Assembly (NCBI GenBank): GCA_041661385.1
Contig: JBAZUP010000001.1
Location: 418,560-482,559, forward strand
Reading direction: 5' to 3'
DNA: 64,000 nt
DNA from: Patescibacteria group bacterium
Lineage (GTDB): Bacteria > Patescibacteriota > Patescibacteriia > Magasanikbacterales > GWA2-37-8
The notes under the pieces are model-generated. The model did no database searches. It was not told the DNA's origin and was given only the letters and a program-made list of their open reading frames with translations. Position 1 is the stretch's first letter. Each line of letters opens with the position of its first letter. The position numbers were made by a program, and so were the translations under genes. This document shows positions 12,487 through 41,853 of this stretch, one piece after another.

Positions 12487-12519
12487 GGATAAAATATGTG
12501 GCCAAATAGCGTCATTTTG

Positions 12520-12548: not shown

Positions 12549-14846
12549 ATGTGCAGTATATCTCGTCAAAAACCTATGGACCAGATTCTTCGCCTCAATG
12601 AATTTTTTGTTGAAGGTGGAAAGCAAGATATCTCTCACGTTTTGCTGCATATCAATGAACCGTCTAGCCCTGAAGAAGCAAAAAAGGGCTACTTTTTTGC
12701 GTTATCGGAGACAAATAACGCCAGTGTTTCGTTTATCGCAAAGTTTCAGGATATAATTGACCGTGCCCAAACTGAATATTATGAGATTGCCGATGAATCC
12801 GGACGCGATGCTTTTGAATTAGTTCTTGAAAAAATGAATGGCGAGGCTTTTGTCCTTGAACATGAACAGGGTGAATTAAACAGCATTGTTGGCGCGATCA
12901 GGCAAAAAGAAATAATCTTCAGTTATTATGGCAATCCTCAGCTCCTACTTTTTTATCGCAACAAACAAGGCGGCTACGATAAAATGGATTTAGTAAAAGA
13001 CAGCGACAAAGATGAAAGTTCTGGTCAAATGTTTTCCCAGGTCATTCAAGGCAAACTAACACCGAACGATTATCTGTTCGTTGGCACTCCGCATATTGTG
13101 GATTTTTTTAGTCATGATCGGCTTGAAAAAATTATCACCAACCGCTCTGCCGAAGAAAGCGCCGCTCATATTGAAAAAGTTCTAAGCGAACTAAAAAACG
13201 GCTTTTCGTTTGGCGGACTCATTATTCATCTTTTTAGACAAGAACAACCGGAAGCCGCCAAAAAACTGCGCCCCGCCGCCGGATCAAGCAGCCAGTCACT
13301 CCAAAATTTGTTTACCCGCGAAAAAAATACCGCCAATACTCTTTCTCCTTCTATTTTACCAAAATTAGATCGTTTACGTGGTATTTTAAACAACAACGAT
13401 GCCCCTCCTCTGCCGGCCCAAAAATCTAATAATGATTTCCGAGGAACAGAAATTAAATCCGCGCACCTGAATACTCATCGGCCAAAAATGCGCGCCCCCT
13501 CCCCGAGTTTTGGCGATTACCTTATTTCAGCAGCAAAAATTATTTGGTCAGGCTTAAAAATCGTCGGCCGATTTCTTTTTCAAATTTTGTACCTTATTTA
13601 CGCCATTTTTTATAACATTTTCCGCACCATTATTTTGCTATTCATGGTAATAATAAATTATAAGAAACGCCGAAATACCATAATCGAAAACTGGAAAATG
13701 GCCTGGCGCGGCAGACGTGAAGATTTCCGGCACTTGCCACCGCTCACCAAATTTATGTTGCTTGGATCAATTTTAATTGCTTTATTCTTTGCAATCAGCC
13801 TCCTCTTTATTCAACACAATCGTAATGTTGCCGCGGAAAATGCCGCTTTTGAAAATTCGATCCGAGATATTCGAACCAAAATTGCCTCTGTAGAAAGCGC
13901 GGTAATATATAAAAATGACGAGCTGGCTTACGCTGAGTTTCAAAAAGCGACTGAAGCCATGTCAGCTGCGGTCTGCAAATCGGCAAATCAAAAAACAATT
14001 TGCAACGGCATCAGAAGTGAATTATCTGTACTTAGTACCAAGCTCCGAAAAATTACGATTGCGAATGTTTCGGAATTAACATCTTTCTCCGATTTGCCAA
14101 AAACTGGAGCAGAAAGAATAATACGAGCAAAAAACAAATTAATCGCTTACTCGCCTGCCACTTCCACTTTATTTACCTATGATCTTTCAACCGGTGAAGT
14201 AAAACTACTTCCGACCTACCCTTCAATCGCCGGTTTTAGCGAAGCCGCTGTACCAAAGGAAAATGATTATGTTCTTTTCTTATATAATAAAAAACAATTG
14301 ATGCGGCTTGATACAACGGACTGGTCCGTACAACTTGCCGAAATCTCGTTTGCTTCTGACAAATCGGAAATTACCGGCTTTGCAGTTTACAACCGCCGCC
14401 TTTATGCGCTCGACGCTATCAACAATACAATTTTACGCCACGATTCAATTAAGACCGGATTCGGCCAAGGACGAGAATGGCTTAAAGACAAAAGTGTTTC
14501 TCTGACAAATGGAACCGATCTTACTATCGATGGTGATGTTTTTATAACCAAAACCGACGGCAGTATCGTCAAATTTACATCCGGAGTTCCGCAGCCTTTT
14601 TCTTTAACCGGTTTAGATCCGGCATTATCCTCCGCTTCGCAAGCCTTCACCTATCTTGATATTCCAAATTTATATATTTTAGAACAGGCCCAAAAACGTT
14701 TAATTATTTTTGAAAAAAATGGCCATTTTATCGGCCAGTACACTAGCCCAACTTTCGTTTCACCGTCCGGATTTTCTGTTGACTATACCGCCAAAAATGT
14801 TTACTTGCTCGACTCGGGAAAACTTCTTAAATTTCCATTGCAATAA
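12549..14846 (+). CDS. Large hypothetical membrane protein (cytoplasmic N-domain, central TM segments, C-terminal extracytoplasmic beta-rich domain); true start probably ATG at 12576
   Basis: 765-aa ORF. TM helices around residues 330-420. No recognised catalytic motifs. The predicted -10 sits directly at the first ATG, so the in-frame ATG at 12576 is more plausible. Confidence 0.5.
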   Translation: MCSISRQKPMDQILRLNEFFVEGGKQDISHVLLHINEPSSPEEAKKGYFFALSETNNASVSFIAKFQDIIDRAQTEYYEIADESGRDAFELVLEKMNGEAFVLEHEQGELNSIVGAIRQKEIIFSYYGNPQLLLFYRNKQGGYDKMDLVKDSDKDESSGQMFSQVIQGKLTPNDYLFVGTPHIVDFFSHDRLEKIITNRSAEESAAHIEKVLSELKNGFSFGGLIIHLFRQEQPEAAKKLRPAAGSSSQSLQNLFTREKNTANTLSPSILPKLDRLRGILNNNDAPPLPAQKSNNDFRGTEIKSAHLNTHRPKMRAPSPSFGDYLISAAKIIWSGLKIVGRFLFQILYLIYAIFYNIFRTIILLFMVIINYKKRRNTIIENWKMAWRGRREDFRHLPPLTKFMLLGSILIALFFAISLLFIQHNRNVAAENAAFENSIRDIRTKIASVESAVIYKNDELAYAEFQKATEAMSAAVCKSANQKTICNGIRSELSVLSTKLRKITIANVSELTSFSDLPKTGAERIIRAKNKLIAYSPATSTLFTYDLSTGEVKLLPTYPSIAGFSEAAVPKENDYVLFLYNKKQLMRLDTTDWSVQLAEISFASDKSEITGFAVYNRRLYALDAINNTILRHDSIKTGFGQGREWLKDKSVSLTNGTDLTIDGDVFITKTDGSIVKFTSGVPQPFSLTGLDPALSSASQAFTYLDIPNLYILEQAQKRLIIFEKNGHFIGQYTSPTFVSPSGFSVDYTAKNVYLLDSGKLLKFPLQ

Positions 14847-22856: not shown

Positions 22857-24482
22857 TCATACTTGGTGAACCGGAATCCAAAAACCAAATTCACTCCCCT
22901 TGCCGAGACCCGGGCTGTGCGCCCAAACTCGGCCGTGATGCGATTCAATAAATTTGGCACAAACGAACAAACCCAAACCAGTTCCATTTACATTCACTCC
23001 TTTTACATTGTTTCCACGGTAAAATTTTTGGAAGAAATTTGCTTCATCGATCTTTTCAAAACCCAAACCTCCATCTTTAACTCTAATCGAAACCCCATCG
23101 CCTTCGCTAATCGCTTCAACTTTTATAACTCCTACATCACAATATTTAATTGCATTGTCTATAAAATTAAATACTACGTGACGAATCTTTTCTTCATCAA
23201 ATATTACTTTGGCCAACTCCGGCGCTCGGTTCCAAACCAAAGTTAAATTCTTTTGTTTGGCTTTAACATCCAGTTCCTTCACAGCGCTATCAATTACATC
23301 ATTTATATCATGCGGGGCAAAATCATATTTTGTCCTACCTTGTTCAAGACGAGTAATATCAAGGAAACTATCTACCAATTTAACTAAGTGACCGTTACTT
23401 TCGTCAATATTTTTATATACTTCAGCCGCTTCTTTGGTAACTCCGCCATAAGCGCCATCTTTCAAAAGCTCAATATAGCCATTGGTAATGGATAATGGGG
23501 TGCGAAGCTGATGCGCGGCAATGGATAAAAAGTCGGTTTTTTGACGGTCTAACTCTTTAAGCTGGATGTTAGCAGTCTGGAGCTGACTGGTAAGTGCCTG
23601 CAGACGCTCACGTTGTTCTACCTCTTTTCGGACGCTTCTTATCAATAATAGCCCCGAGCTTAAAATTAATAAAAATACAAAAAATTTATAAATTCTTATT
23701 ATTAATGTTTCTGCACTAACTACTTCAACTAATACTGGAAATGCTAAAATAAAAACCAAAACTTCCGTTGAAATAATTTTTATATCTAAAAGATGGTATT
23801 TGATAATAGCAAAGGAAGTGAGGAGAATAAATGGAAAATAAAAAACTGATCCATATACTATAAAGTGCGAATTTGAAAAAAGTGCTGGCAACAAAAAATT
23901 AAAGAATATCACTAAAATAAAGGTTATAATAGTTCCAATTAATACGAGAAACAACGCCACACGTTTGCGTTTTTCTTTGGTGGTAATTATTTTTCTTATA
24001 AAAACAATTATACTTGCCAACACAAAACCTGCAGAAAACAAACCAAATAATAAAATTGCCGGTCCGTTTTCAATTTTCGTTATAATACCGTTAGAAGAAA
24101 CTGCTATTGCTCTCTTAAAAACAGCGGGCGTTAAGGTAAGAAGGGAGACCACGACGGTAATTGGAAATAGTAATAATTTATACAATCGAGAAAATTCATA
24201 ATTTGTTTCAGGAAAAACTAAAAAAAACTGGAATAAAAAGTAGACTTGCCATAAAGCAAAAAATATTACAAGTCGCAATACCCACAAACCAATTTCCGGT
24301 ATAAAAACATGATAGCTTAGATAATTGAGCGCACCCCAGATGCTAACCATTATAATAAAAAAGAAAAACGATTTACTGGTAATACTTTTCCGATCGCTCA
24401 AAAAAACAATCGCACCTAAAAGAAGCGATACTAAGACCGTCAAACCTACAGATAACAAATCAAGATTACCTAATATATCCAT
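22857..24482 (-). CDS. Sensor histidine kinase with N-terminal 7TM (7TMR-DISM-like) sensor and C-terminal HisKA+HATPase_c
   Basis: About eight hydrophobic helices, a coiled-coil, H-box LSIAAHQLRTPL, N/G boxes (VFNFIDNAIKY; DGGLGF; GTGLGL). Confidence 0.8.
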   Translation of the reverse strand: MDILGNLDLLSVGLTVLVSLLLGAIVFLSDRKSITSKSFFFFIIMVSIWGALNYLSYHVFIPEIGLWVLRLVIFFALWQVYFLFQFFLVFPETNYEFSRLYKLLLFPITVVVSLLTLTPAVFKRAIAVSSNGIITKIENGPAILLFGLFSAGFVLASIIVFIRKIITTKEKRKRVALFLVLIGTIITFILVIFFNFLLPALFSNSHFIVYGSVFYFPFILLTSFAIIKYHLLDIKIISTEVLVFILAFPVLVEVVSAETLIIRIYKFFVFLLILSSGLLLIRSVRKEVEQRERLQALTSQLQTANIQLKELDRQKTDFLSIAAHQLRTPLSITNGYIELLKDGAYGGVTKEAAEVYKNIDESNGHLVKLVDSFLDITRLEQGRTKYDFAPHDINDVIDSAVKELDVKAKQKNLTLVWNRAPELAKVIFDEEKIRHVVFNFIDNAIKYCDVGVIKVEAISEGDGVSIRVKDGGLGFEKIDEANFFQKFYRGNNVKGVNVNGTGLGLFVCAKFIESHHGRVWAHSPGLGKGSEFGFWIPVHQV

Positions 24483-24488
24483 AATATA

Positions 24489-25559
24489 TTATATGGCTGA
24501 TTCATAAGAAACAGACGGCGCAAGCCGTGAAGACGTAGCGGAGGGCGGACTAGCTTTTCCAACTCTAAGAATAAACAACGTATTTTTTTTACCGGCATCG
24601 CATTGAAAACAAATATCTTGATATGAATCTTTAATCATCTGTTGCTGGCTTACACTAATTTCTTCCGTTGCTTGCCCTTTTACCCGTTGGTATAAAAATA
24701 ACACGCCAGTTATAGGATGTGCAGAAACACCTTCTGCAGTACAGGCAAGCCAGACTCGTTGTAACGACCTACCAAGGGCAATAAAATCCTCTGGAGTGTC
24801 TCTTTCGGACAAAAATGCAACAAATGACGGGCTGGCTTGAAATAATTTGGCATTATCCTCGGCAATTTTTTTGGTAATTCCCAATTTATTAATAATTTTC
24901 ATTATCGGCCAAAAACTGGCAATCCGAAAAGCTATTTCCTGAGGTTTGGGCATTTCTAATGTCTTCACATAGAGTCCACTCTTCTTTTGTTTTTCGTCTT
25001 CTTCCGACCAAATAATATGTTTAAAAAAGAAACTGTGAATTACTTTAGTAGTTAGAACCGTCATTTCATTAGTAACCGAAGCAAGGCTTATTTTTTTTAT
25101 TTTTTTCTCATCGTCTATAAATTTTACTTCAATTCCAAGCTCACTATTGGCACTTAAAATTCTATCTTTTGTTTCGGGAGGAATTGATTCATTCCTATAT
25201 GGAAGCCTGTTGGTCACCCGTTTATCGACATATTTTGCGAAAACATCAGCATTAACCCCAGGATTTGTGACAAAAGTAACAATAGCAATCAACTCATTAT
25301 GACTGCCTTTTGGAAAAAGTTTAATTTGACACTCGTAGCCATTCTCACTAGCTATAATGCAAATATTTTCAAGCAACGCCCCATGCGCAACATGAGAACC
25401 GCATTGCTTGTAATTGTAAAATGGTAAATCTTTTTCTGGGTAATTATAAACAAAAAGGTCATCATTGCTAACCGAAAAATGCCAAGGCTGCGAATTGTCC
25501 CCCGAGGGAGCATAAACAGCTTTTGCTAAAATTTTTTCAATTACCTCCCTACTAATCAT
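24489..25559 (-). CDS. Nitroreductase-superfamily flavoenzyme, two-lobed (SagB/McbC-like dehydrogenase candidate)
   Basis: N-terminal APSGDNSQPWHF (nitroreductase SxxNxQPW motif). 356 aa, about twice a canonical nitroreductase, with a second NTR-like half (SPSFVAFL...LACTAEGVSAHPI). Overlaps the ThiF-like gene by 4 nt. Confidence 0.6.
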   Translation of the reverse strand: MISREVIEKILAKAVYAPSGDNSQPWHFSVSNDDLFVYNYPEKDLPFYNYKQCGSHVAHGALLENICIIASENGYECQIKLFPKGSHNELIAIVTFVTNPGVNADVFAKYVDKRVTNRLPYRNESIPPETKDRILSANSELGIEVKFIDDEKKIKKISLASVTNEMTVLTTKVIHSFFFKHIIWSEEDEKQKKSGLYVKTLEMPKPQEIAFRIASFWPIMKIINKLGITKKIAEDNAKLFQASPSFVAFLSERDTPEDFIALGRSLQRVWLACTAEGVSAHPITGVLFLYQRVKGQATEEISVSQQQMIKDSYQDICFQCDAGKKNTLFILRVGKASPPSATSSRLAPSVSYESAI

Positions 25560-26698
25560 ATACCTATGATTTGAAGAAACTTTTTAGTGTCTTTTAACCG
25601 TCGATTTTTATTTTTAGCATAATCCGCATCCAAAACTGCCTCCAAATTTATTTCGTACCGACCAGATTTGTAATTTTTATAACCATTTACTATATTCCGT
25701 GCCAAAAAAGCCAATGCGGTACCACACAAGTTGGCGGCGGTTCCCAGCTGAGGCCAAGAATATAAAGTTTTACCGACTTCCAAAACTGACTGCTGCATGC
25801 GGGTCGTGGCTATTTCTGCGCCGGCAATCCTAGCGGCAATACGCGGCAACTCACGCGGATCGATCGTTTTTAAATCATTTGATGTAATATTCATAGCTTT
25901 ACCGTTAAAAAGCGCAAGATTTGGTTGCAGGTCATACCGCTCAATGTCGATAAAGATATTGTCACCGTTGTCGGTTGCCATAATTACTGGAATTTTTTTA
26001 ATCTTTGCAATCTCTCGAATTTTAAATTTATAAAAAGGATTGTCCATTTCTTCAATCAATAAGTCTGCTCCTTTTAAGAAACTTTCAATATTTTTTTCGC
26101 TGATACCCTCATCATACAATTCCAACTTAATATATGGGTTTAATTCATATAATTGACGGGCGACCAGATGAGACTTGTCTTCCCCGATATTTTGCACTCC
26201 GGTTCGGACGCGATTAAGATTTGAACCGGACAACACGTCTAAATCAGCAATTTTAAATCTACGAGCACCACCGTTCATGACAATCGTTGAAGCAGCGTGA
26301 CTTCCTACACTCAAGCCAGCCAAAGCAATGGTTGCCTCATAAAATGCCTTCTGCTCTTTCTTGGTTATAAGATTACAATTTCGGCCGGTACGCATTTCAA
26401 AAAAATCTACTTCTTCTAAAACATGAAAAACAACGCTTAGCCATGGGAAGAAAAACCAATTTCCGCATTGCGACAAATCAGTTTGGTTTTTTTTATAATC
26501 ACTCACGAATTTTTCAAAATCTTTTTTATATTCTTTAATAAATCTGAACTTCGGATTTCGCAATAAAAACAAATCCTCAAGCTGAGTCATATATTCGTCC
26601 TTTACAACCAGACCCGGATACTCTTTCTTTATCTCCACTAATTCCTTCTTAAGTGTCTTTTTGTCGAGCTGCCGAGGTTTAATAAAAATATTTTTCAT
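25556..26698 (-). CDS. ThiF/MoeB/E1-like (HesA/MccB/PaaA-type) adenylyltransferase-fold enzyme
   Basis: Rossmann-type nucleotide-binding region ALAGLSVGSHAASTIVMNGGARRFKIADLDVLSGSNLNRV (E1 GxGxxG...D.D...NL.RQ pattern). 380 aa with an N-terminal extension. Confidence 0.7.
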   Translation of the reverse strand: MKNIFIKPRQLDKKTLKKELVEIKKEYPGLVVKDEYMTQLEDLFLLRNPKFRFIKEYKKDFEKFVSDYKKNQTDLSQCGNWFFFPWLSVVFHVLEEVDFFEMRTGRNCNLITKKEQKAFYEATIALAGLSVGSHAASTIVMNGGARRFKIADLDVLSGSNLNRVRTGVQNIGEDKSHLVARQLYELNPYIKLELYDEGISEKNIESFLKGADLLIEEMDNPFYKFKIREIAKIKKIPVIMATDNGDNIFIDIERYDLQPNLALFNGKAMNITSNDLKTIDPRELPRIAARIAGAEIATTRMQQSVLEVGKTLYSWPQLGTAANLCGTALAFLARNIVNGYKNYKSGRYEINLEAVLDADYAKNKNRRLKDTKKFLQIIGI

Positions 26699-26705
26699 AT
26701 ATTAA

Positions 26706-28256
26706 TTATGTCTTTTTTACCCATCGTTGTTTTGTGGCGGCGGCAAAATACGCAGTGTCCCCCTTCAGTCGCAAGTCCAGCTCCGGATGCGCTTTCATCT
26801 TGATGGTTTGGAAAAGGTGGTTATATTCAGAATTCTTTTTTCTAAGCGTCTCAATGATAATTTTTTGAATAAATCCTTCCATTGCTTTGTCGGGCTTGAT
26901 ATTTGTCTGTAATTCAATATGAATTAATAAACGTTGCTGTTGATCTTTTTTTAAATTTACAGTTTCCATTACAAATTTACCCGTACACAATTTACTTAAT
27001 TCCTTTGTTTCTAGTGCCATTTTTATATTTTCAGGATAAATATTCAAACCGTATAGTGTAACAGTAAAATCGGAACGGCCATATAAATACACAAAGGGTA
27101 AATGCCACATGAGTTGTCCGCCAACTAACTCACGTACTTTTTTAATATCATAACCGCCTGCTTTGAGTAATTCAATCATTTTTTCATAACTCAAAATATT
27201 TCCCCGGTCATGAATATTATACTTCAACAGCGGTATTTCTGTATTAAAAGAAGAAAAAATTAGTTCGTCATTTTCAATCTGAATATATTTAAAGAATGGA
27301 TAATACTGATTAAGTGACGGCGCATAACCTTCGCCAAATATTTTTTTACAAAGTTCCGCATTGTTTCCTACAGCTTTTCTTAATAAAATACTAAGCGGTA
27401 CCTCATGCCCCATCAGCGCTGCGTCAGCGGTACCATAAAGATTTACCGACGAGGTATAATAATTTGATTTTTTAATGCCAACTTTTTCATAAATATACGA
27501 TCTGAGGGTCTCACTTAATGATTCAGAAGCAAAAACAAACTTAATAACCTTGCTTTTCCAGTCTATTCCCCGCCTCTCCCCTTCATCCACGATATCTCTA
27601 ACAAAAGGCGGATATCCGCCTATTATTATTTGTTCAAACTCGCCGCCCATTTTTTCAACTATTCTTAAAATTTCTTCCTGGTTAATTCCTGGGGTAATAA
27701 TGGTTAGCGGCAAACCCTTTTGTGCTAAACGCATGCAACAATTTAGTGTAAAGGTGCCACCGATATAAATACCCATCGAAAAACCATTTATAAATAATGT
27801 TTTTCTTTTATTCGCACCAAGTATGTGTTTAATGAAAAACTCATAAAGATACGATGTTTCAGCTTCAACATTAAATGACCTCGGCCAGAAAAATGGTTGC
27901 CCTGATGAGCCTGAACTCGCCGAAATAATCGGCGCTTTCATTTTTCCGTCCCAGCAAAGATCAGATAATTTGTACTTTTTTAAATAATTTTCTTTATCTA
28001 CCCAGGGAACATGTTTAAGATCATCGATTTTTTTTATTTTATGATGATTTATTTTATTCTTCTTTAAGAAATCACGATATGCCGGAACCCTTTCCGCCAT
28101 TTGGTGAAATTGTTTTAAGGCCTTTTCAGCTCCGATTTTTTCATACATCGCCGGGTTATTTTCGGCAAAACCCTCAACTAAAAAATCTGAGTTCGTACTA
28201 AAAAAATCATTTAGACTTAAGCTACTATCGGAAAATAATTTTTTCTGATTAACCAT
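26706..28256 (-). CDS. PaaK / coenzyme F390 synthetase / CapK-like adenylate-forming enzyme
   Basis: ISASSGSSGQPFFWPRS corresponds to the PaaK-family SSGTTG P-loop. 516 aa with an overall ANL-like two-domain layout. Confidence 0.65.
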   Translation of the reverse strand: MVNQKKLFSDSSLSLNDFFSTNSDFLVEGFAENNPAMYEKIGAEKALKQFHQMAERVPAYRDFLKKNKINHHKIKKIDDLKHVPWVDKENYLKKYKLSDLCWDGKMKAPIISASSGSSGQPFFWPRSFNVEAETSYLYEFFIKHILGANKRKTLFINGFSMGIYIGGTFTLNCCMRLAQKGLPLTIITPGINQEEILRIVEKMGGEFEQIIIGGYPPFVRDIVDEGERRGIDWKSKVIKFVFASESLSETLRSYIYEKVGIKKSNYYTSSVNLYGTADAALMGHEVPLSILLRKAVGNNAELCKKIFGEGYAPSLNQYYPFFKYIQIENDELIFSSFNTEIPLLKYNIHDRGNILSYEKMIELLKAGGYDIKKVRELVGGQLMWHLPFVYLYGRSDFTVTLYGLNIYPENIKMALETKELSKLCTGKFVMETVNLKKDQQQRLLIHIELQTNIKPDKAMEGFIQKIIIETLRKKNSEYNHLFQTIKMKAHPELDLRLKGDTAYFAAATKQRWVKKT

Positions 28257-28264
28257 AAAATAAT

Positions 28265-29077
28265 TTACTTTGTGGCAACAGTAATTAACTGTGGCGAATT
28301 ATCATTATACGGACTTCCGTCCCAATCCCCGTAACATGCAACCTCCTTAAAACCAACTCCTTTGCATAAATCTGTAAATTCTTTATCAGTATATAACCTT
28401 ACTGAATATGGTGTAAGTTCTTCTCTTTTACCGTCTTTTGTTATAAGAGTCCATTCACCGTCTTCTCTTTTTGTGGTCGTATTATAGCGGCGTTTTAGCT
28501 CTAATTCTTTACCGGATAAAAGTTTTCGAACCTGAAAATTCAATAGTTCACCACTAACTAACCGCGGTACGGTTACATGCGTATGCATCAAAAATTTACC
28601 ACCCGGCTTCAGAGCCTCAAAAAATTTTCTGGCAACTTCTTCGTTTTCCTTGTCCGAATCAAAAAAACCAAATGAATAAAACATATTAATCACGGCATCG
28701 AATTCATTTCTGAATTTCAGGTGTCGCATGTCATTTTTTATGAAACGACAATTCTCAATCTTTTTCTCAGATCTTTTATCTTCATCTAATTTTAAAAATC
28801 TTTCATTAATATCTGCACCGGTAACATTAAAACCTGCCTCTGCAAGTGCTAGCGAGTGTCTACCGTAACCACAGGGACAATCTAAAATTTTTGCACCCTT
28901 ATTTAACCCACATAATTTTGCCACACCGGAAATTTCATGGGTGGTCCTTAGCTGCAGGTTCAATGGTGAATTAAGATGTCCTTCGACGGAATCATCAGCT
29001 TCCTTATACAAATCTCCAAAAAAACCTCCATCGCTTTCCCACCACTCTGTTTGTTCTGTTTGCATAACTTGACCCAT
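28265..29077 (-). CDS. Class I SAM-dependent methyltransferase
   Basis: ILDCPCGYGRHSLALAEAGFNVTGADI (motif I), FDAVINMF (motif II) and LKPGGKFLM (motif III). Confidence 0.7.
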   Translation of the reverse strand: MGQVMQTEQTEWWESDGGFFGDLYKEADDSVEGHLNSPLNLQLRTTHEISGVAKLCGLNKGAKILDCPCGYGRHSLALAEAGFNVTGADINERFLKLDEDKRSEKKIENCRFIKNDMRHLKFRNEFDAVINMFYSFGFFDSDKENEEVARKFFEALKPGGKFLMHTHVTVPRLVSGELLNFQVRKLLSGKELELKRRYNTTTKREDGEWTLITKDGKREELTPYSVRLYTDKEFTDLCKGVGFKEVACYGDWDGSPYNDNSPQLITVATK

Positions 29078-29128
29078 ATATCTCTTTTTATTAATAAATA
29101 TTTTTAAAAATTATAAACTAAACAAGAT

Positions 29129-30214
29129 TTATTTACTGGTGACTTTTTCATATTCGACATTTCTGTTTAAAAAAGCATTAGCAATAATAAGAGCTTCTTT
29201 TTCAAGTGTACTTCCCGAACTTTTACTTTTTTTCAAAATTAGATCTAGACTTTTGGGAATTTTTTTAAGATCATTCAAAATCCTTTCTTCGTTTGGATTT
29301 TCATTTATATACTGATCTACCACACTCACGATACCACCCGAATTGGCCAAATAGTCCGGAACATACAAAATACCCAATTGATTTAATTTTTCTGCGATTT
29401 CCGGACTTGCTAATTGGTTATTTGCTGACCCGACCACTGCTCGACATTTTAATTCACTAACAGATTTTTCATTTAAAACACCACTAAGTGCCGAAGGGGA
29501 AAAAATATCAACTTCTTGTTTGTGAATCTCCTCTGCCCCAACCACCTTAAGAAATGGAAACTCGGCTAAAATTTTCTTTATTTTTACATCATCAATATCG
29601 GAAATAATTATATTTTTTACATTACTCTTTATTAAAAGCCTTAGTAATTCAGAACCTGTTTTACCAATTCCTTGAATTGCAAAACTGCGTTCCTTTACCT
29701 CACTTGTTCCAAATATTGATGATAATACCGACTCAATACAATATTTAACACCGATTGCCGTGTAGTAACCCGAGTTTACACCCATTCCAATAATAAATTG
29801 ACTTGCTTTACGTAAAATATCTAAATCATCATTACTCACACCTACATCCGTACCAGTGACAAATTTACCATTTAATTCATTTACCTGTTTGGCGTATGTG
29901 GTAAAGAATTTGTTCCGGTCTTTAATTCCGTCTTTTGGTAATACCAGAGCGGCCTTCGCACCGCCGAAGGGCATGCCGGCCAAGGCTGATTTATATGACA
30001 TTAATTTTGACAAACGCAACGCATCGCGCAAGGCTTCTTCATCGGTAGCGTATCTCCACAACCGGGTTGCACCAAGTGAAGGAAAACCATTATTGAGACG
30101 GTGGATTGCAATATATCCCTTCAAGCCAACGGACTCATCTTCAACTAAATAGACACCATAGTTCTCGTCGTACTCTTCAAATTTTTCCAAATACGATTTA
30201 TCTAAAATTTTCAT
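29129..30214 (-). CDS. Glu/Leu/Phe/Val dehydrogenase family amino-acid dehydrogenase (leucine-dehydrogenase-like)
   Basis: PFGGAKAALVL (catalytic Lys region) and a C-terminal NAD Rossmann fold (GIGKTGSEL...). 361 aa. Confidence 0.75.
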   Translation of the reverse strand: MKILDKSYLEKFEEYDENYGVYLVEDESVGLKGYIAIHRLNNGFPSLGATRLWRYATDEEALRDALRLSKLMSYKSALAGMPFGGAKAALVLPKDGIKDRNKFFTTYAKQVNELNGKFVTGTDVGVSNDDLDILRKASQFIIGMGVNSGYYTAIGVKYCIESVLSSIFGTSEVKERSFAIQGIGKTGSELLRLLIKSNVKNIIISDIDDVKIKKILAEFPFLKVVGAEEIHKQEVDIFSPSALSGVLNEKSVSELKCRAVVGSANNQLASPEIAEKLNQLGILYVPDYLANSGGIVSVVDQYINENPNEERILNDLKKIPKSLDLILKKSKSSGSTLEKEALIIANAFLNRNVEYEKVTSK

Positions 30215-30217: not shown

Positions 30218-31927
30218 TTACATTTCTTCGACAGTTTCAATAGTTAAAATTGCTAACATGTTTTTCAAAACCTGGCGCACCGCCTGAGAAAGAACCAAGC
30301 GCGCCGAAGATAATTCTTTTGATTCCGCGCCGACAACTTTGTGCTTATTATAGAAGTTATTATAGGCCTGCGCAAGTTCAAAGACATAGCGCGCGATGGC
30401 TGAAGGATTATAATTTTCCAGTGCTTTTTCAATCACGGTCTCAACCTCCCCCATCATCAAAACCAAAGCCTTTTCTTCGGGGGCAACCAAAGCGCCAAAT
30501 TCCTTTCCGGCGGATATTTTTTCTTTTTTAGCTTTCGCTTCCAAACTATTGATACGGGCGATGGTATATAAAATATACGGCCCGCTAAAACCTTCAAACG
30601 AAGTTGCTTCTTTTAGATCAAAAACTGTATTCTTTACCGCTTCATGTTTTTGCATATCGAATTTCAGCGCTGCCTGAGTTAATATATTTGATGTCGCAAT
30701 GATTTTTTTCTTGGCCCAATCGGCATGGCGCTGTTTTGTTTCTTCAACTATTAGATCAAAAATTTGATCTCGTAAACTTTCATATAAAATCACATTGCCG
30801 CTACGTGAGGACATTTTGCCCTCCGGCAAATTTACGAGCCCATAGCTGAGGTGGGTTAACTTTTGCTTAAACCCAATCAATTCCAAGATTTTATAAAGTT
30901 GTTTGAAATAAAACTTTTGCTCTTCACCGGTGATAACAATACTCTCGTCTACCGGATATTTACTAAATTTTTGTTCGGCCAAAGGAATATCACTGGTTAA
31001 ATAAAGACCGACGCCGTTTGATTTGCGTAAAAGCGCTATATCCAAATTATATTCCGACAAATCCACGATAATCGCACCGCCCTCACCAACTTTCGCTATT
31101 CCTTTTTTTAAAAGCTCATCTACTCTAGCCTGTCCCATTGCTTTAATATCTTTTTCATAAAAAACCGCCATGTGCTTTACCCCGAGCTCTTCAAATAATT
31201 CATCAAACTTGTCGATACTCCATTTTCTGGTCTTGATAAACAGCGGCCAGATTTTTTTATCATTTGCTTCCAATTGTTTTTGTATTTCTTGAACTTCAAC
31301 TTCGCATTCCTGATGATCTTTTAAATAATGGCTCGCTTCGGCGTAAATTTCGCCCAGCCATTTCTGCTTATTGGCAGGGGCTTTTTCATCACCGTGAAAT
31401 TTTTTGAGTCCCCAAAGACATTTGGCGACATGCGAACCAAAATCATTTAAATAATTCACCGGATAAACCTTAACACCAGTTTTTTCATATAACTTAACCA
31501 ATGTATTGCCGATACAGACATTCCGAAAATGACCAATATGAAACTCTTTGTGAGTATTATTGGATGGGTACTCGATCATCACTTTTTTACCTTTGCCAAT
31601 TTCGGTTGAACCAAAATCATCGGTATTTTTTATTACTGATTTGATAACAAAGTTTGCAACCTGTGAAGAATTTAAGAAAAAATTTACATAAGGACCAAAG
31701 GCGGCAACTTTTTCAACTGTTGAATCAGGTTTTAATACACTGGAAATTTTGCTTGCGAGTTCAGTTGCTACCTCGTTTGGTTTTTTACCGGCTACTTTGG
31801 CAATATTAAAACAAGCAAACGCTACGTCACCCATTTCTGGTTTTGGCGGTACTGAAAAAGCCGCAGGATTATCCACCCCGGCTTGTTTTAACAGCTTCTC
31901 AATTTCCTCCTGAATCCCTCGTAGCAT
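30218..31927 (-). CDS. argS: Arginine--tRNA ligase
   Basis: Class I HIGH motif (FHIGHFRN). ArgRS N-terminal Add-1 and C-terminal DALR anticodon-binding regions. 569 aa. Confidence 0.9.
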   Translation of the reverse strand: MLRGIQEEIEKLLKQAGVDNPAAFSVPPKPEMGDVAFACFNIAKVAGKKPNEVATELASKISSVLKPDSTVEKVAAFGPYVNFFLNSSQVANFVIKSVIKNTDDFGSTEIGKGKKVMIEYPSNNTHKEFHIGHFRNVCIGNTLVKLYEKTGVKVYPVNYLNDFGSHVAKCLWGLKKFHGDEKAPANKQKWLGEIYAEASHYLKDHQECEVEVQEIQKQLEANDKKIWPLFIKTRKWSIDKFDELFEELGVKHMAVFYEKDIKAMGQARVDELLKKGIAKVGEGGAIIVDLSEYNLDIALLRKSNGVGLYLTSDIPLAEQKFSKYPVDESIVITGEEQKFYFKQLYKILELIGFKQKLTHLSYGLVNLPEGKMSSRSGNVILYESLRDQIFDLIVEETKQRHADWAKKKIIATSNILTQAALKFDMQKHEAVKNTVFDLKEATSFEGFSGPYILYTIARINSLEAKAKKEKISAGKEFGALVAPEEKALVLMMGEVETVIEKALENYNPSAIARYVFELAQAYNNFYNKHKVVGAESKELSSARLVLSQAVRQVLKNMLAILTIETVEEM

Positions 31928-32010: not shown

Positions 32011-32232
32011 GGCAATACCCCCTACCAAAAGAAGTCAGCACGGCCGGAATAAGGTTGTGCCCATTAGATCGTTGAGGATACTCACCCCCCGCAGGGCAGC
32101 TTTGATTGCCCTATCTTCACCTCCTATTTGGGACCCAATCAACCTAATTCATTTCATGAAAGCCGACTTCTCCTTGGTAGGGGGCAGTCTAACTATAAAC
32201 CCCCACGACTAATAATCGTGGGGGATTTTTTT
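32011..32232 (+). ncRNA. Candidate ~220-nt structured sRNA (family not identified; 6S-like closing-stem architecture)
   Basis: Begins just after the promoter. A long-range helix pairs ccccctaccaaaagaagtc (32017-32035) with gacttctccttggtaggggg (32164-32183), enclosing internal hairpins. Ends in terminator aaacccccacgactaataatcgtgggggattttttt (32197-32232). No ORF. Both flanking genes are on the opposite strand. Confidence 0.35.
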
Positions 32233-38621: not shown

Positions 38622-40208
38622 CTAAATTAGCGGTACGCCCGTCATTTCTGGTGGTTGTTCAATATCTAGTAATTTTAATACTGTTGGAGCGATATCAGCA
38701 AGCACACCAACCGGCGCGAGCAAGCTTAAATCTCCTTCTGGCGGATCTCCGCCCGGACCAGCTTGACCCCTAAAATCATCGCCGATAATAACACATGGTA
38801 CCGGATTTACCGAATGCTCCTTATCCATTTCAGTAGTTTGTAAATTTAATAATTCTTCGGCATTGCCATGATCAGCGGTAAAAATAACGACCCCTTCATG
38901 AGCGAGAGTGTGTTTTACTACTTCGCCTAACCCAATATCGGCCGCTTCGCACGCCGCGATGGTTGCCGGAAGATTGCCAGTATGACCAACCATATCGGCG
39001 TTCGCAAAATTTATTACCACAAAATCATAATTGCCGCTGTCGATTGCTTTAATCGCTTCTTTTGTTACTCCGGGTGCGGACATTTCCGGCAACTCCGCGT
39101 AGCTGCCAATTCTCGGCGAAGGAACTAAAACTCGATCTTCACCAGGAAATTGCTCTTCAACCGTACCGTTTAGAAAAAATGTAACGTGGCCATATTTTTC
39201 GGTTTCCGCGATATGTATCTGTTTTAAATTATTTTTACTTATTACTTCGGCAAGACAATTGTGAACAACAATAGGTTCATAAGCAACCACGACCGGAATA
39301 TTTTTTTCATATTCCATCATGGTTACAAAAAATAAATTCTCGATTCGATCTCTTTCAAAACCGGTAAAAGCCGGCAACACAAAAGCTTTGGTAAGTTCAC
39401 GCGCCCGATCCGGCCGAAAATTAAAAAATATCGCGGCATCGTTTTTTTCAATTGAACCAACTGGGGCGCCTTTCATATCGGTAATCACCGTCGGAACAAA
39501 TTCTTCATCGTAAACTTTTTCATTATAAGAATCCATTACTGCCTGTTCGGGGTCAGCCGATTTCTTTTCCGACTGGCCGAGCGCCATGGCGTGATAAGCT
39601 CTTTCTACACGCTGCCAGCGGTTGTCGCGATCGAGCGCGTAAAACCGGCCCGAAATAGTCGCGATTTGCCCCACTTGCAAGGTGGCCAATTTTTGCCTTA
39701 GATCTTTTATTAAACTCACTCCAAGATTAAAACCACAATCGCGACCGTCCAAAATGGCGTGCACATAAACTTGCTTATTTAATCCGTTACGTTTGCATAG
39801 TTCAAGCAAGGCATAAAGATGATCCATGCTAGAGTGAACATTTCCCGAGCTAAGCATGCCAATAAGATGCAAAGAAGAATGATTTGTTTTCGCATGTTCA
39901 ATCGCCCGAAGGAAGGCCTGATTTTCAAAAAAACTTCCATCAGCAATAGATTGGTTGATACGCGGACAAGATTGATAATAGACGCGGCCAGCGCCAATAT
40001 TCAAGTGGCCGACTTCAGAATTGCCGATTTCTCCAAACAAAAGACCCACTTCATTTCCGGAAGCGTAAAGTGTCATTGCCGGATAATTTTTGAGGTATTC
40101 CGAAAAATTCGGGGTCTTGGCCTTGGTAATAGCATTTCCTTCGCTCGGTGGAGCTACTCCCCAACCGTCAAAAATTGTCAGCACTACCGGCCGGTAATGT
40201 TTCGCCAT
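38622..40208 (-). CDS. gpmI: 2,3-bisphosphoglycerate-independent phosphoglycerate mutase (copy 1)
   Basis: TIFDGWG and GNSEVGHLNIGAGR (catalytic Ser) near the N-terminus. C-terminal metal-binding DHGN. 528 aa. Confidence 0.85.
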   Translation of the reverse strand: MAKHYRPVVLTIFDGWGVAPPSEGNAITKAKTPNFSEYLKNYPAMTLYASGNEVGLLFGEIGNSEVGHLNIGAGRVYYQSCPRINQSIADGSFFENQAFLRAIEHAKTNHSSLHLIGMLSSGNVHSSMDHLYALLELCKRNGLNKQVYVHAILDGRDCGFNLGVSLIKDLRQKLATLQVGQIATISGRFYALDRDNRWQRVERAYHAMALGQSEKKSADPEQAVMDSYNEKVYDEEFVPTVITDMKGAPVGSIEKNDAAIFFNFRPDRARELTKAFVLPAFTGFERDRIENLFFVTMMEYEKNIPVVVAYEPIVVHNCLAEVISKNNLKQIHIAETEKYGHVTFFLNGTVEEQFPGEDRVLVPSPRIGSYAELPEMSAPGVTKEAIKAIDSGNYDFVVINFANADMVGHTGNLPATIAACEAADIGLGEVVKHTLAHEGVVIFTADHGNAEELLNLQTTEMDKEHSVNPVPCVIIGDDFRGQAGPGGDPPEGDLSLLAPVGVLADIAPTVLKLLDIEQPPEMTGVPLI

Positions 40209-40290: not shown

Positions 40291-41853
40291 TTAAAACAGT
40301 GGTTTTCCTGTCATTTCTCTAGGCGCTTTAATATCCATAAGTTTTAAGATTGTCGGCGCCACATCACACAGTCTACCCGCTCTAAGATTTTTTTTCAACT
40401 TTAGCCTCTTAAAATCTTTTGTATCAGACACAATGATAAACGGAACAGGATTTATTGAATGTTCCGAATCAGTTTCTCCGGTTTTGGAATTTATCATTTC
40501 TTCGGCATTACCATGATCGGCAGTAATGACACAAATTGCCCCCGCCTTAATAGTAGCACTAACGATTTTTCCTAAAACTTCATCAAGCGCCCTTACCGCT
40601 TTTTTCCCGGCTTCAAGATTTCCAGTATGACCAATCATATCGGCATTCGCAAAATTTACGGCAATAAACTCATATTCATTTTTTTCAATGGCTTTTATCA
40701 CGTGACTTCCAAGTTCTCGCGATTTCATTTCCGGTTTATTTACAAAATTCTTTAAATGATCTGATTCAATTTTTACCCATTGCTCATCACAAAAATGCTG
40801 GGCATAACCGCCATTCAAAAAATAGGTAACATGCGCGAATTTCTCTGATTCCGCAATATATAGCTGATGTTTTGGGCAAAGTACCGCCACCAAACTATTC
40901 TTCACGTCACGACTCGGAAATGCCGTAAAAATACCGGCCAGATCCGGACCAAAATCTGTCATCGCTACGAAGCGATTGTTTTTGGGAACATGAGCGCGGT
41001 GAAATGCTCCCGGATTAGATTTTTCAAAATCCTTTTGCACCAACGATTTTGTAAGTTGGCGGGCCCGGTCGCTGCGTAAATTAAAAAAGAAAAACACGTC
41101 ATTATCTTTGACCGTGGCAACCGGTTTATTATTTTCGGTAATAACCGTCGGTGAAATGAACTCATCGCTTTCTTCGGAATTATAAGCCATTGAGATTGCC
41201 TCTTCTGCTCCACTCGCCATTTTTCCTTTTCCGCACACAATAGCATTATAAGCGGCTTCAGTTCGCTCCCAAACTTTATTGCGGTCCATCGCGTAAAACC
41301 TACCCATCACGGTCGCAATTTTTTCATTACCGTGAAAATGAGCTTCCAATTTATTTAAGTGTGACAGAGCATCATGCTGACCGGAATCTCGTCCATCGGT
41401 AAATAGATGTAAAAATACTTTTTTTACACCTTCTTTATGGAATAAATCGAGTAACGCATAAACATGTTCCGGACAAGAATGAGCACTATTATGATTCGAC
41501 AAAAGACCCATCACATGCACGCTTGTTTGATATTTTTTTACGTGATGTATCGCCTGCTGAAAAGCATTATTTTTGAAAAAAGAATCATCTTTGATAGCAT
41601 CGGAAACATAAATCGCATCCTGTTTTACCACCCGACCGGCGCCGATATTCAAGTGCCCAGCTTCGCTATTTCCTTCCTGCCCTTTTCGAAGCCCGACCGC
41701 CTCACCGCTTGCTTCCAATTCTGAACTTGGATAATCCTTGAGCCATTTATAAAAATTCGGCGCGGTTTGCGGCGTTATGGCGCTGGCCTTACAATTTTTT
41801 GCCGGCATCCCCCAACCATCCAAAATAATAAGCAGAGTCGTTTGCTTTGGCAT
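40291..41853 (-). CDS. gpmI: 2,3-bisphosphoglycerate-independent phosphoglycerate mutase (divergent tandem paralog, copy 2)
   Basis: ILDGWG and GNSEAGHLNIGAGR. ADHGN near the C-terminus. 520 aa. Clearly diverged from copy 1 but has the same architecture. Confidence 0.8.
   Translation of the reverse strand: MPKQTTLLIILDGWGMPAKNCKASAITPQTAPNFYKWLKDYPSSELEASGEAVGLRKGQEGNSEAGHLNIGAGRVVKQDAIYVSDAIKDDSFFKNNAFQQAIHHVKKYQTSVHVMGLLSNHNSAHSCPEHVYALLDLFHKEGVKKVFLHLFTDGRDSGQHDALSHLNKLEAHFHGNEKIATVMGRFYAMDRNKVWERTEAAYNAIVCGKGKMASGAEEAISMAYNSEESDEFISPTVITENNKPVATVKDNDVFFFFNLRSDRARQLTKSLVQKDFEKSNPGAFHRAHVPKNNRFVAMTDFGPDLAGIFTAFPSRDVKNSLVAVLCPKHQLYIAESEKFAHVTYFLNGGYAQHFCDEQWVKIESDHLKNFVNKPEMKSRELGSHVIKAIEKNEYEFIAVNFANADMIGHTGNLEAGKKAVRALDEVLGKIVSATIKAGAICVITADHGNAEEMINSKTGETDSEHSINPVPFIIVSDTKDFKRLKLKKNLRAGRLCDVAPTILKLMDIKAPREMTGKPLF

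Follow-up and report, generated by a model that had tools for sequence, protein, structure and literature searches.

Our analysis has identified a conserved Patescibacterial gene module in which a Phe/Leu/Trp-type dehydrogenase (DH) or an aminotransferase, a PaaK-like enzyme, a ThiF protein, a flavin-dependent oxidase (FDO) and a HisKA_7TM histidine kinase (HK) follow one another, sometimes with single-domain response regulators behind them. We tentatively propose, with confidence just short of even, that it is an oxazolone-type small-molecule module whose genes are linked to that of a membrane sensor kinase. If this is true, an ATP-dependent ligase replaces the acyltransferase as the first step of an oxazolone-type pathway, and an ultra-small bacterium plausibly makes a signal for which it has its own receptor. 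The literature searched held no earlier description of the module for Patescibacteria.

The window, which is the whole 64,000-nt stretch of DNA analysed, belongs to an ultra-small Patescibacteria/CPR bacterium and carries the genes on its minus strand. An ELFV dehydrogenase of 361 aa (29129-30214; Pfam ELFV_dehydrog_N and ELFV_dehydrog) is followed by a class I SAM-dependent methyltransferase (MT) of 270 aa (28265-29077; Pfam Methyltransf_31/25/11), a PaaK-family adenylate-forming enzyme of 516 aa (26706-28256; TIGR02155, PDB and Foldseek), a ThiF-like ATP-dependent cyclase of 380 aa (25556-26698; NF005901 and BLAST) and an FDO of the nitroreductase superfamily of 356 aa (24489-25559; NF011424, NF005901 and PDB). 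The original prediction of five genes here was correct. Each of the five products matches a known family significantly (Pfam, NCBIfam) and was also called on independent assemblies, and together they bear out the small-molecule biosynthetic cassette of five named enzyme classes, which is indeed unexpected in a reduced genome. The genes had been described as separated by at most a few nucleotides; this holds for most of them (MT-PaaK 8 nt, PaaK-ThiF 7 nt, and the predicted 4-nt overlap of the ThiF and FDO genes) but not for DH and MT, which lie 51 nt apart. The gene for a HisKA_7TM sensor histidine kinase of 541 aa (22857-24482, minus strand; Pfam HisKA_7TM, HisKA and HATPase_c) lies 6 nt from the FDO gene, and the module reaches past 24489-30214 to take it in.

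Comparative genomics of approximately 115 related loci demonstrated that this arrangement is not due to chance. The order DH-PaaK-ThiF-FDO-HK was seen in more than 30 diverged relatives whose flanks are otherwise unrelated, with the flanking genes wholly different from lineage to lineage. Among 20 PaaK-anchored loci with at least 5 kb per side, a ThiF gene was present in all 20, an HK in 18, a DH, aminotransferase or SDR in 16 and an FDO in 11. Among 35 ThiF-anchored loci with at least 3 kb per side, PaaK (33, adjoining ThiF), FDO (33), HK (32), DH (23) and aminotransferase (6) genes were found. With an HK in 32/35 and 18/20 loci, the earlier view of the kinase as a mere flank must be given up, as it belongs to the conserved module.

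By their family scores, the ThiF protein and the FDO correspond to both halves of the oxazolone synthetases of the Rv1355c/TrzS–OxzB–TyzB/TyzC family. The ThiF protein scored 280 bits against the Rv1355c family model NF005901 (model positions 22-348), with the next-best ThiF-family model at 73 bits (NCBIfam). The FDO scored 172 bits against the same model at positions 373-713, the C-terminal half of ThiF-FDO fusions, as well as 199 bits for NF011424 and 144 bits for the Acg family (NCBIfam), and its PDB match was 2ymv Acg. For both proteins, the scores on the Rv1355c (TrzS) fusion halves are far above those for any ThiF/MoeB/TcdA or NfsB model. By BLAST against an Rv1355c-family fusion from Rhodococcus, the ThiF protein is 33% identical over 323 aa to the ThiF part, in an alignment that takes in the W-x-x-x-P-W and WPQL segments specific to the clade, and the FDO is 22% identical over 286 aa to the FDO part, with the APSGxNSQPW motif; these alignments span essentially the whole of both domains. 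A fused ThiF-FDO gene is present in one CPR locus (L038). The GLSVGS loop, DxDxxSxSNLNR and D219 are invariant in the ThiF protein, whose ATP site is intact, and D219 aligns with the Asp of the ThiF adenylation motif, mutation of which kills TrzS (PMC12856293). Characterized relatives use ATP and O2 to convert N-acyl Tyr/Phe/Trp to N-acyl oxazolones (PMC12856293, PMC10404671, bioRxiv 10.1101/2020.06.11.147165). Based on these matches, we propose that the FDO is a C-alpha/C-beta desaturase.

Known oxazolone synthetase systems are OxzA/OxzB of Pseudoalteromonas rubra, TyzA/TyzB/TyzC, and TrzA/TrzS (Rv1356c/Rv1355c) of Mycobacterium tuberculosis (PMC12856293, PMC10404671). As in these systems, a ThiF-like ATP-dependent cyclase and an Acg-type FDO of the same families are adjacent or fused. 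In contrast to them, the module is without an acyl-CoA-dependent N-acyltransferase (homologues of the OxzA/TyzA/TrzA type occurred in 0/35 ThiF-anchored loci), possesses a PaaK-family enzyme (33/35 loci) and an amino-acid dehydrogenase or aminotransferase, includes a HisKA_7TM HK in its conserved unit and resides in a Patescibacterium. The missing N-acyltransferase is among the components that define the known systems, and its absence counts against the oxazolone proposal, making an N-acyl amino acid a putative substrate of the ThiF cyclase here. The acylating partner is exchangeable, however, because in Streptomyces the ThiF genes from this clade are paired with a GNAT. The oxidase also sets sister loci apart from the known systems, and this too speaks against the proposal: in roughly half of the CPR loci anchored on PaaK no FDO was detected within 8 kb, and many other CPR loci encode an Acg-family (FDO-B-like) protein, of a subgroup so far without a link to oxazolones (PMC10404671). 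A further point against it is that O2 is required for known FDO desaturation, whereas many CPR bacteria live without oxygen.

The original prediction also allowed for a tailoring cassette of the RiPP/TOMM kind, where azol(in)e rings would be installed on a peptide of ribosomal origin by a SagB-type dehydrogenase together with an E1-like cyclodehydratase partner. TOMM clusters do pair ThiF/E1-like with nitroreductase-superfamily proteins; the module likewise combines an E1-superfamily protein with a nitroreductase-superfamily flavoenzyme, as in SagBCD, and the top NCBIfam match of its MT is a daptide RiPP methyltransferase, albeit at only 59 bits, where the cutoff is 175. Nevertheless, we regard this reading as very improbable. 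It is contradicted on its defining features. The profile-HMM search returned zero SagB or cyclodehydratase matches at E<=0.01 (NCBIfam). No YcaO was present among the 39 window ORFs scanned, no precursor-like small ORF in the DH-MT gap (the sole region searched below 60 aa), and no recurring unlabelled ORF family in 36 CPR loci (ORFs of at least 70 aa compared). Further, the ThiF protein, with its intact ATP site, groups with the small-molecule oxazolone clade, and the supposedly SagB-like nitroreductase is, by its family scores and PDB match, a monomeric, double-lobed FDO of the Acg type. The original prediction had staked itself on a conserved gene order and a nitroreductase that is not plainly NfsB-like, and on both points it was right.

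Another alternative is that the adenylating enzymes act on a macromolecule and make no free metabolite, for instance by acylating or cyclizing a residue on the HK, on a pilin, on a tRNA or on a precursor of the cell wall. Most characterized ThiF-like enzymes target proteins, peptides or tRNA (PMC12596934). In addition, TcdA, which makes an oxazolone on t6A, is what the ThiF protein matches best by sequence in the PDB (1e-7), and the window module sits among aminoacyl-tRNA synthetase genes. However, the TcdA model scored 37 bits (NCBIfam) compared with 280 for the Rv1355c family, the aminoacyl-tRNA synthetase neighborhood is not conserved, and the module encodes no conserved candidate substrate protein. 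Modification of a macromolecule is thus improbable.

The PaaK-like enzyme is without a Pfam match, and resembles PaaK only distantly in sequence (TIGR02155, 56 bits where the cutoff is 646, NCBIfam; PDB PaaK/BT_0428, 3e-9). Its AF2 model (pLDDT 89.6) retrieved PaaK1/2, BT_0428, HCL, NatL2 and ClxA using Foldseek (E 1e-22 to 1e-13), with 11-17% structural-alignment identity to solved members, the closest of which are phenylacetate-CoA ligases. Among 20 homologues, the P-loop SSGSSG, YGTADA, D350 and the C-terminal K509 are invariant, and the GRSD motif (G393/D396) is kept in at least 90%. The ligase shares the PaaK fold and intact adenylation motifs with NatL2/BomJ (nataxazole, A33853) and ClxA (closoxazole), and is approximately 80 residues longer than PaaK. 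Ind3 of the indolmycin pathway is reportedly PaaK-like as well. It carries out an ATP-dependent coupling, in a report that does not give its family (PMC8246080). NatL2 and ClxA are CoA-independent ester/amide ligases (PMC7204872, PMC9400959). By analogy, we propose that the module's enzyme is a CoA-independent amide ligase giving an N-acyl amino acid, although it could be a true CoA ligase. The heterocycle ligases form an ester or amide with ATP before an O,N-heterocycle is closed, and we predict the same order for the module; the ring-closing partner would be ThiF instead of an amidohydrolase or Ind6.

Homologues of the ligase in cyanobacteria adjoin a multi-TM (MASE1) histidine kinase, whereas those in methanotrophs adjoin a glycyl-radical enzyme and an alcohol dehydrogenase and not signalling genes. 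The methanotroph neighbors, the phenylacetate-CoA ligases as nearest solved relatives and the mostly catabolic roles of ELFV dehydrogenases would suit catabolism or salvage, in which an amino acid is deaminated to its 2-oxo acid and energy or carbon is gained by way of an (aryl)acyl-CoA that the PaaK-like enzyme makes, with ThiF and FDO serving unrelated purposes such as sulfur-carrier activation or nitro/quinone reduction. We consider this explanation improbable, given the low PaaK equivalog score (56, cutoff 646) and a module without an oxidative decarboxylase or a ThiS/MoaD-like carrier. The ThiF/FDO pair also scores specifically with the oxazolone-synthetase fusion family, and a conserved five-gene order with an HK is hard to square with two unrelated functions.

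By sequence, the DH belongs to the Leu/Phe/Trp-DH branch of the NAD(P)-dependent amino-acid dehydrogenases, and its active site is intact. It matched LeuDH 3vpx (1e-59) and TrpDH 5b37 (5e-53) in the PDB and ScyB Trp-DH at 234 bits, under the cutoff of 600 (NCBIfam). In 37 cluster-linked homologues the equivalents of catalytic K68/K80/D115/N262 are invariant, Gly occupies the LeuDH-A113 position (37/37), and Leu or Ile the V291 position (36/37). We propose that it turns an aromatic or bulky amino acid into a 2-oxo acid for the pathway, or runs the reverse reaction; it could instead deliver the amine acceptor and not the acyl donor. In other loci an aminotransferase or Ind2-like SDR takes its place as the acid-supply gene. 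The indolmycin acyl donor is made by conversion of an amino acid to a 2-oxo acid, a C-methyltransferase and the reductase Ind2 (PMC8246080), a likeness to the CPR sister loci that carry aminotransferase and Ind2-like SDR genes. The MT is a rare accessory tailoring gene, found in just 4/36 and 5/35 related loci; its closest matches are weak and to N-methyltransferases (besides the daptide enzyme, CypM, GSMT and DesVI-like chains). In stieleriacine clusters, too, methyltransferase genes adjoin those for ThiF and nitroreductase proteins (PMC12479983), as an MT gene sometimes does here.

Taken together, these analyses suggest the following route to an oxazolone. The DH would convert an amino acid with a bulky or aromatic side chain to the matching 2-oxo acid, or back. 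A carboxylic acid, probably this amino-acid-derived one and optionally methylated by the accessory MT, would then be adenylated by the PaaK-like enzyme, which would pass the acyl group straight to an amino acid's amine. An N-acyl amino acid would thereby form with neither an acyl-CoA nor an acyltransferase. By homology to TrzS, TyzB and OxzB, ThiF would adenylate the carboxylate of this N-acyl amino acid, and attack by the amide oxygen would form the 5(4H)-oxazolone ring. The Acg-type FDO, again by homology, would desaturate C-alpha/C-beta and so produce an oxazolone with an alkylidene or arylidene group; its hydrolysis may give an N-acyl dehydroamino acid. Based on conserved linkage, we further predict that the 7TM HK detects either the product or an intermediate within the membrane, and that its output runs via single-domain response regulators located elsewhere in the genome.

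The HK carries its seven-helix membrane domain directly on HisKA-HATPase, with no other sensor domain by Pfam, and its AF2 model (pLDDT 74.5) shows a bundle of helices and one short loop that forms a beta-hairpin. In 32/36 loci an HK gene lies no further than 8 kb from PaaK, and 37/38 matching ORFs are on the same strand as PaaK. Similarity of the 7TM domain follows that of the enzymes (rho 0.54/0.47/0.41) above the catalytic core (rho 0.35/0.33/0.21), values partly expected from co-inheritance alone. Linked response regulators in related loci are mostly single receiver domains with no DNA-binding output; none was found in the 64-kb window. Signalling genes (c-di-GMP enzymes) also occur near oxazolone synthetase systems in some actinobacteria (PMC12856293, PMC10404671). 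As in CqsA-CqsS, LuxM-LuxN, AgrBD-AgrC and PhcB-PhcS, biosynthetic genes adjoin a polytopic kinase, and the candidate product is likewise small, hydrophobic and hydrolytically labile. In those autoinducer pairs, the kinase senses via its membrane domain only. In contrast to them, the module has no sequence relationship to their synthases or receptors. The near-constant linkage of the HK therefore makes a self-made chemical signal and its receptor plausible. The HK may be the receptor for the module product, and the original suggestion of a signal may well be right; its link to the 7TM HK (32/35 and 18/20 adequately flanked loci) is much closer than had been assumed.

Gene adjacency, however, fits the HK as a product sensor or as a pathway controller that senses another cue. 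In the latter case, the oxazolone or N-acyl-dehydroamino acid would be a non-signalling metabolite (a stress protectant, a membrane or surface lipid-like molecule, or an antimicrobial against the host or competitors), and the HK would only switch the pathway on upon an external cue. Pathway-specific two-component regulators commonly adjoin biosynthetic genes, and the HK linkage counts suit such a metabolite equally well. Oxazolones and N-acyl dehydrotyrosines have been tied to stress induction and antimicrobial activity, with no receptor known (10.1101/2020.06.11.147165, PMC12856293). We nevertheless find this reading rather unlikely, since single-receiver response regulators are atypical of a transcriptional pathway switch, the membrane bundle is the sole sensor of the HK, and the 7TM domain co-varies with the enzymes above the catalytic core.

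The arginine-tRNA ligase gene argS (30218-31927, minus strand; TIGR00456, 392 bits) lies 3 nt upstream of the DH gene. Beyond the window genome, just three close relatives (L092, L161 and L163) have it 5′ of the module, and it is missing from the remaining related loci. The functional tie that had been predicted is not borne out by a linkage so limited, and argS is a lineage-specific upstream neighbor outside the module. The top promoter-like site is 5′ of argS, in a scan that was overall not above shuffled expectation, and two terminator-like hairpins precede the gene; co-transcription of argS with the module is plausible in the window genome.

Our analyses resolved a compact run of genes on the minus strand of the window, directly downstream of argS (30218-31927, minus). 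It encodes a dehydrogenase of the ELFV type (29129-30214), a SAM methyltransferase of class I (28265-29077), an adenylate-forming enzyme resembling PaaK (26706-28256), a member of the ThiF family (25556-26698), a protein of the nitroreductase superfamily referred to here as a flavin-dependent oxidase (FDO; 24489-25559) and a HisKA_7TM histidine kinase (22857-24482). Each of these six products gave a significant family match, and gene calls were identical on two independent assemblies. The five-gene cluster of the original prediction, from dehydrogenase to FDO, was thus confirmed by its ORFs, family matches and both assemblies. From argS to the kinase, the successive gaps are 3, 51, 8 and 7 nt, a 4-nt overlap (thiF/FDO) and 6 nt; spacing of at most a few nucleotides therefore holds at every junction except the 51-nt gap between the dehydrogenase and methyltransferase genes. 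The supposed functional tie to argS was rejected, because argS lies upstream of the module in three close relatives only. A promoter scan returned 38 sites, with 38.6 expected in shuffled sequence; since this is no excess, the scan does not establish the operon boundaries. An Rfam search of the argS leader region gave no match. The tyrS-argS gap contains a stretch of approximately 170 nt (32015-32186, minus) with a long closing helix (CCCCCUACCAAGGAGAAGUCGGC...GCCGUGCUGACUUCUUUUGGUAGGGGG), located downstream of two terminator-like hairpins and upstream of a strong extended -10 promoter-like site (31974-31946). Folding gave an MFE of -81 kcal/mol for 226 nt (z = -2.8), there was no Rfam match at E<0.1, and the stretch may be an undescribed structured RNA.

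The cluster had been read as a small-molecule or RiPP tailoring cassette with a SagB-like nitroreductase. Neither the SagB profile (TIGR03605) nor the profiles for E1-like C-proteins/cyclodehydratases (TIGR03603/TIGR03882) matched the ThiF or nitroreductase-like protein at E<=0.01, although the same NCBIfam search did report other TIGR-derived models, and the nitroreductase matched FDO/Acg-type families instead. No YcaO domain was present in the 39 window ORFs scanned, which included every ORF of at least 300 aa. Because profile matches and YcaO were both missing, we rejected the SagB/TOMM reading. As for a precursor peptide, there was no plausible small ORF in the region of the dehydrogenase-methyltransferase gap, the sole place searched below 60 aa, and no unlabelled ORF family of at least 70 aa recurred in 36 CPR loci.

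The ThiF and FDO proteins instead resemble the two halves of an oxazolone synthetase. In NCBIfam, the window ThiF aligned with 280 bits to positions 22-348 of NF005901, the 'Rv1355c family' model of 722 residues, and all other ThiF, MoeB or TcdA models reached at most 73 bits; the window FDO aligned to positions 373-713 of the same model (172 bits), and also matched NF011424/PRK14851 (199 bits) and the Acg family (144 bits). Compared with a Rhodococcus protein annotated as Rv1355c-family, the ThiF has 33% identity over 323 residues, extending to N- and C-terminal segments (WxxxPW, WPQL) that are specific to the clade and lie beyond the generic ThiF core; the FDO has 22% identity to this protein over 286 residues and carries the same APSGxNSQPW motif. 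Among solved structures, Acg (PDB 2ymv) is the best match to the FDO. In addition to the overlap of the two genes in the window, ThiF and FDO form one fused gene in a CPR sister locus, L038. Based on these sequence relationships, we assign the predicted cyclase/oxidase core to the oxazolone-synthetase family. Rv1355c is TrzS, a ThiF-cyclase/FDO fusion that, with the acyltransferase TrzA, produces N-acyl tryptazolones; OxzB, and TyzB with TyzC, act likewise for tyrosine and phenylalanine (PMC12856293, PMC10404671, 10.1101/2020.06.11.147165, PMC12596934). In TrzS, mutation of the adenylation Asp abolishes cyclase activity (PMC12856293). The corresponding residue in the window ThiF, matched via the Rhodococcus protein (EEMDN aligned to EECD), is D219, which together with the GLSVGS and DxDxxSxSNLNR motifs is invariant across 14 homologues. 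The adenylation site, including this Asp equivalent, is thus intact.

Two oxidase types were seen among CPR modules. The window-type oxidase, also present in comparison loci L026, L028, L044 and L048, scores highest with ThiF-FDO fusion models, whereas the oxidases of L009, L016, L015 and L005 lie at or over the cutoff of the Acg-family model (NF047509) and are therefore FDO-B-like. The FDO-B subgroup had no earlier tie to ThiF or oxazolone genes (PMC10404671). Similarity of the kinase 7TM domain to that of the window follows the same division between loci.

The PaaK-like protein (516 aa) had no Pfam match, not even to AMP-binding, and fell far short of the PaaK equivalog level (TIGR02155: 55.8 bits, with the cutoff at 646.3). 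Its AlphaFold model (pLDDT 89.6) matched PaaK1/2 and BT_0428 in Foldseek with E ~1e-22 and TM up to 0.74. Further matches were 2-hydroxyisobutyryl-CoA ligase and two ligases of the PaaK family that work without CoA, NatL2 (PMC7204872) and ClxA (PMC9400959). Among 20 homologues, the SSGSSG P-loop, YGTADA (A5), D350 (A7) and the C-terminal K509 are invariant; the GRSD motif of A8 (G393/D396) is kept in at least 90%. The modeled PaaK fold and these motifs place the protein in the PaaK-like subfamily of adenylate-forming (ANL) enzymes. Ind3 of indolmycin biosynthesis is, we presume, also PaaK-like. In that pathway, an amino acid is converted to an oxo acid, followed by methylation and reduction and by ATP-dependent coupling by Ind3 (PMC8246080).

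The dehydrogenase contains both ELFV domains and is nearest to Leu-, Trp- and Phe-dehydrogenases, with its catalytic Lys/Lys/Asp/Asn invariant in 37 module-linked homologues; it scored 234 bits with the ScyB equivalog, below the cutoff of 600. We classify it from these features as an ELFV amino-acid dehydrogenase of the Leu/Phe/Trp-dehydrogenase branch. The position of LeuDH A113 is Gly in 37/37 module-linked dehydrogenases, and that of V291 is Leu/Ile in 36 of the 37. We take this pocket to resemble the PheDH signature (G124/L307), which would indicate bulky or aromatic substrates. Best matches of the methyltransferase were weak and mostly N-methyltransferases, and give no basis to choose between C-, N- and O-methylation.

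In order to follow the module across genomes, one genome per species was scanned for ligase relatives, which turned up in 524 species, and features within 8 kb were recorded for the best 80 loci, 36 of them CPR-type. Among these 36, ThiF occurred in 31, the HisKA_7TM kinase in 32 and FDO in 19. A gene for a dehydrogenase, a class I/II aminotransferase or an SDR reductase was present in 23, and one of the SDR copies has a match to Beta_methylindole_red_C, a family of Ind2 type. Single-domain response regulators (11/36), a methyltransferase (4/36) and an alpha/beta hydrolase (2/36) were less frequent. When at least 5 kb was available on each side (n=20), ThiF was found in 20/20 loci and the kinase in 18/20. 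A second comparison, in metagenomes, was anchored on ThiF. It yielded 80 loci, 35 of them with at least 3 kb on each side, a few being the same contig in different assemblies. These 35 contained the ligase (33), FDO (33), kinase (32), dehydrogenase (23), response regulators (20), aminotransferase (6) and methyltransferase (5). As the original prediction required, gene order is conserved in relatives: dehydrogenase-ligase-ThiF-FDO-kinase, the order of the window, was seen in nearly all loci. Genes on the flanks show no relation between lineages. The module occurs in MAGs labelled Saccharibacteria, Andersenbacteria, Berkelbacteria, Nealsonbacteria, Yanofskybacteria, Lloydbacteria and Woesebacteria.

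The 44 non-CPR ligase homologues among the best 80 (cyanobacteria, methanotrophs, Chloroflexia) are accompanied by neither ThiF nor FDO. In Microcoleus, the next gene after the ligase encodes a multi-TM histidine kinase of the MASE1 type, and genes for a Ser/Thr kinase and an RR-EAL protein lie alongside. This arrangement is represented by L046 (Microcoleus vaginatus, 7696-14005) and approximately 20 related cyanobacterial loci, where genes for the MASE1 kinase, for RR-EAL and RR-LuxR proteins and for a divergent Ser/Thr protein kinase flank the ligase gene. These loci are a second, independent association of the ligase family with membrane sensor kinases. On Streptomyces plasmids, the same ThiF clade is paired with a GNAT: in both L089 (6923-8697, plasmid of Streptomyces sp. 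NBC_01426) and L090 (6707-8505), the gene for a stand-alone ThiF of the Rv1355c clade overlaps that for a GNAT, with no FDO annotated nearby. The L089 ThiF, the sole copy of the pair that was scanned, scored 426 bits with NF005901. These two loci may encode an oxazolone-type pathway lacking desaturation.

The kinase, present in about 90% of module loci, consists of HisKA_7TM, HisKA and HATPase_c domains with no other sensor domain. Conserved adjacency and a kinase with membrane helices as its sole sensor are also features of autoinducer synthase/membrane-kinase pairs. Similarity matrices of all module proteins correlate with one another; rho against the enzymes was 0.54, 0.47 and 0.41 for the 7TM domain and 0.35, 0.33 and 0.21 for the catalytic core, which is suggestive of closer tracking of the enzymes by the 7TM domain. 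A word-indexed search with this domain returned 5 proteins, and the 7TM alignments were too divergent for pattern scanning. The 7TM model, built from a shallow alignment, had a pLDDT of 74.5 and non-significant GPCR-like helix-bundle matches (E>=6e-3). Gene adjacency fits both a kinase that senses the product and one that regulates the pathway, and cannot separate the two. In the Saccharibacteria-labelled L007/L013 (13599-17527), type IV pilus genes (PilM/N/O, T2SSF, T2SSE) directly follow the module and a response regulator on the opposite strand, which hints that they could be an output of the signalling pathway. An opposite-strand block in the same position in L010 (15296-18993, also Saccharibacteria-labelled) is similar in gene sizes alone.

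From family membership, catalytic motifs, and gene linkage and order, we infer the following scheme. The dehydrogenase, or an aminotransferase or SDR in sister loci, would supply a 2-oxo or 2-hydroxy acid derived from an amino acid. The PaaK-like enzyme would activate this acid with ATP and amidate an amino acid with it, standing in for OxzA/TyzA/TrzA. ThiF would then cyclize the resulting N-acyl amino acid into an oxazolone, the FDO would desaturate this ring product, and the 7TM kinase would sense the oxazolone or its hydrolyzed dehydro-amino-acid form. Unlike OxzAB, TyzACB and TrzAS, the unit described here replaces the acyltransferase with a PaaK-like ligase plus a dehydrogenase for amino acids, includes a dedicated 7TM kinase, and resides in a CPR bacterium.

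Several observations weigh against this scheme. An OxzA/TyzA/TrzA-type acyltransferase, one of the components that define the known systems, is absent among the ORFs examined. The seeds were a TrzA stand-in (a hypothetical protein encoded divergently to the gene of the Rv1355c family in Rhodococcus L091, itself without an NCBIfam match) and the Streptomyces GNAT partner, and sensitivity is limited to these two families. Searches of the 64-kb window (phmmer E<=1e-3) and of the 36 CPR loci (phmmer at the same threshold; jackhmmer E<=1e-5) gave no match to either. In the 80 ThiF-anchored loci, the stand-in had 0 matches, and the GNAT seed hit an ORF of 188 aa in L158 and L160, two loci that represent a single contig. 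About half of the PaaK-anchored loci have no FDO or have an Acg-family (FDO-B-like) one, and known FDOs require O2. The window also has no response regulator; neither this nor an aminotransferase, SDR, hydrolase or acyltransferase was found elsewhere in the 64 kb.

Bacterial oxazolones were found in 2020-21; their physiological role is open, and signalling has been a matter of speculation (PMC12856293, 10.1101/2020.06.11.147165). In the full-text literature, of which coverage was incomplete, we found no account of this module in Patescibacteria, CPR or Saccharibacteria. We put forward a proposal that we regard as doubtful: CPR bacteria would make an oxazolone or N-acyl dehydroamino acid signal, diffusible or membrane-borne, from scavenged amino acids and detect it with the dedicated 7TM kinase. 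The PaaK-like ligase, ThiF cyclase and Acg-type oxidase would assemble this signal. Since the kinase is linked in about 90% of loci, the signalling idea is a directly testable ligand-receptor hypothesis. If true, it would be the first autoinducer-receptor system in CPR, would provide the first receptor and physiological role for bacterial oxazolones, and would offer a clue to the function of Acg-family oxidases, among them the ones in M. tuberculosis. The predicted biosynthetic logic is new, with ATP-dependent PaaK-like N-acylation using amino-acid-derived acids rather than acyl-CoA, and would fit organisms without fatty-acid and CoA metabolism. Oxazolone-type cyclase/oxidase chemistry would have been retained over many CPR lineages despite minimal metabolism. 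As one of very few conserved CPR sensory modules, the unit could govern epibiont-host or epibiont-epibiont communication.

Elsewhere in the window, three ORFs (49400-52333, 977 aa; 12549-14846, 765 aa; 9981-11468, 495 aa) had no Pfam match at E<=1e-4. A giant ORF of 2486 aa (56046-63506, minus) carries SpvB, FG-GAP, RHS-repeat, CBM_4_9 and Ig domains and a C-terminal SLT lytic transglycosylase. Its domain content identifies a putative Tc-toxin/RHS-like surface protein with a muralytic end, plausibly a host-attack factor of an epibiont. Two tandem paralogous genes for cofactor-independent phosphoglycerate mutase (38622-40208 and 40291-41853, minus) adjoin those for enolase (41855-43102) and phosphoglycerate kinase (44149-45321), a duplication that is unusual in a reduced genome.
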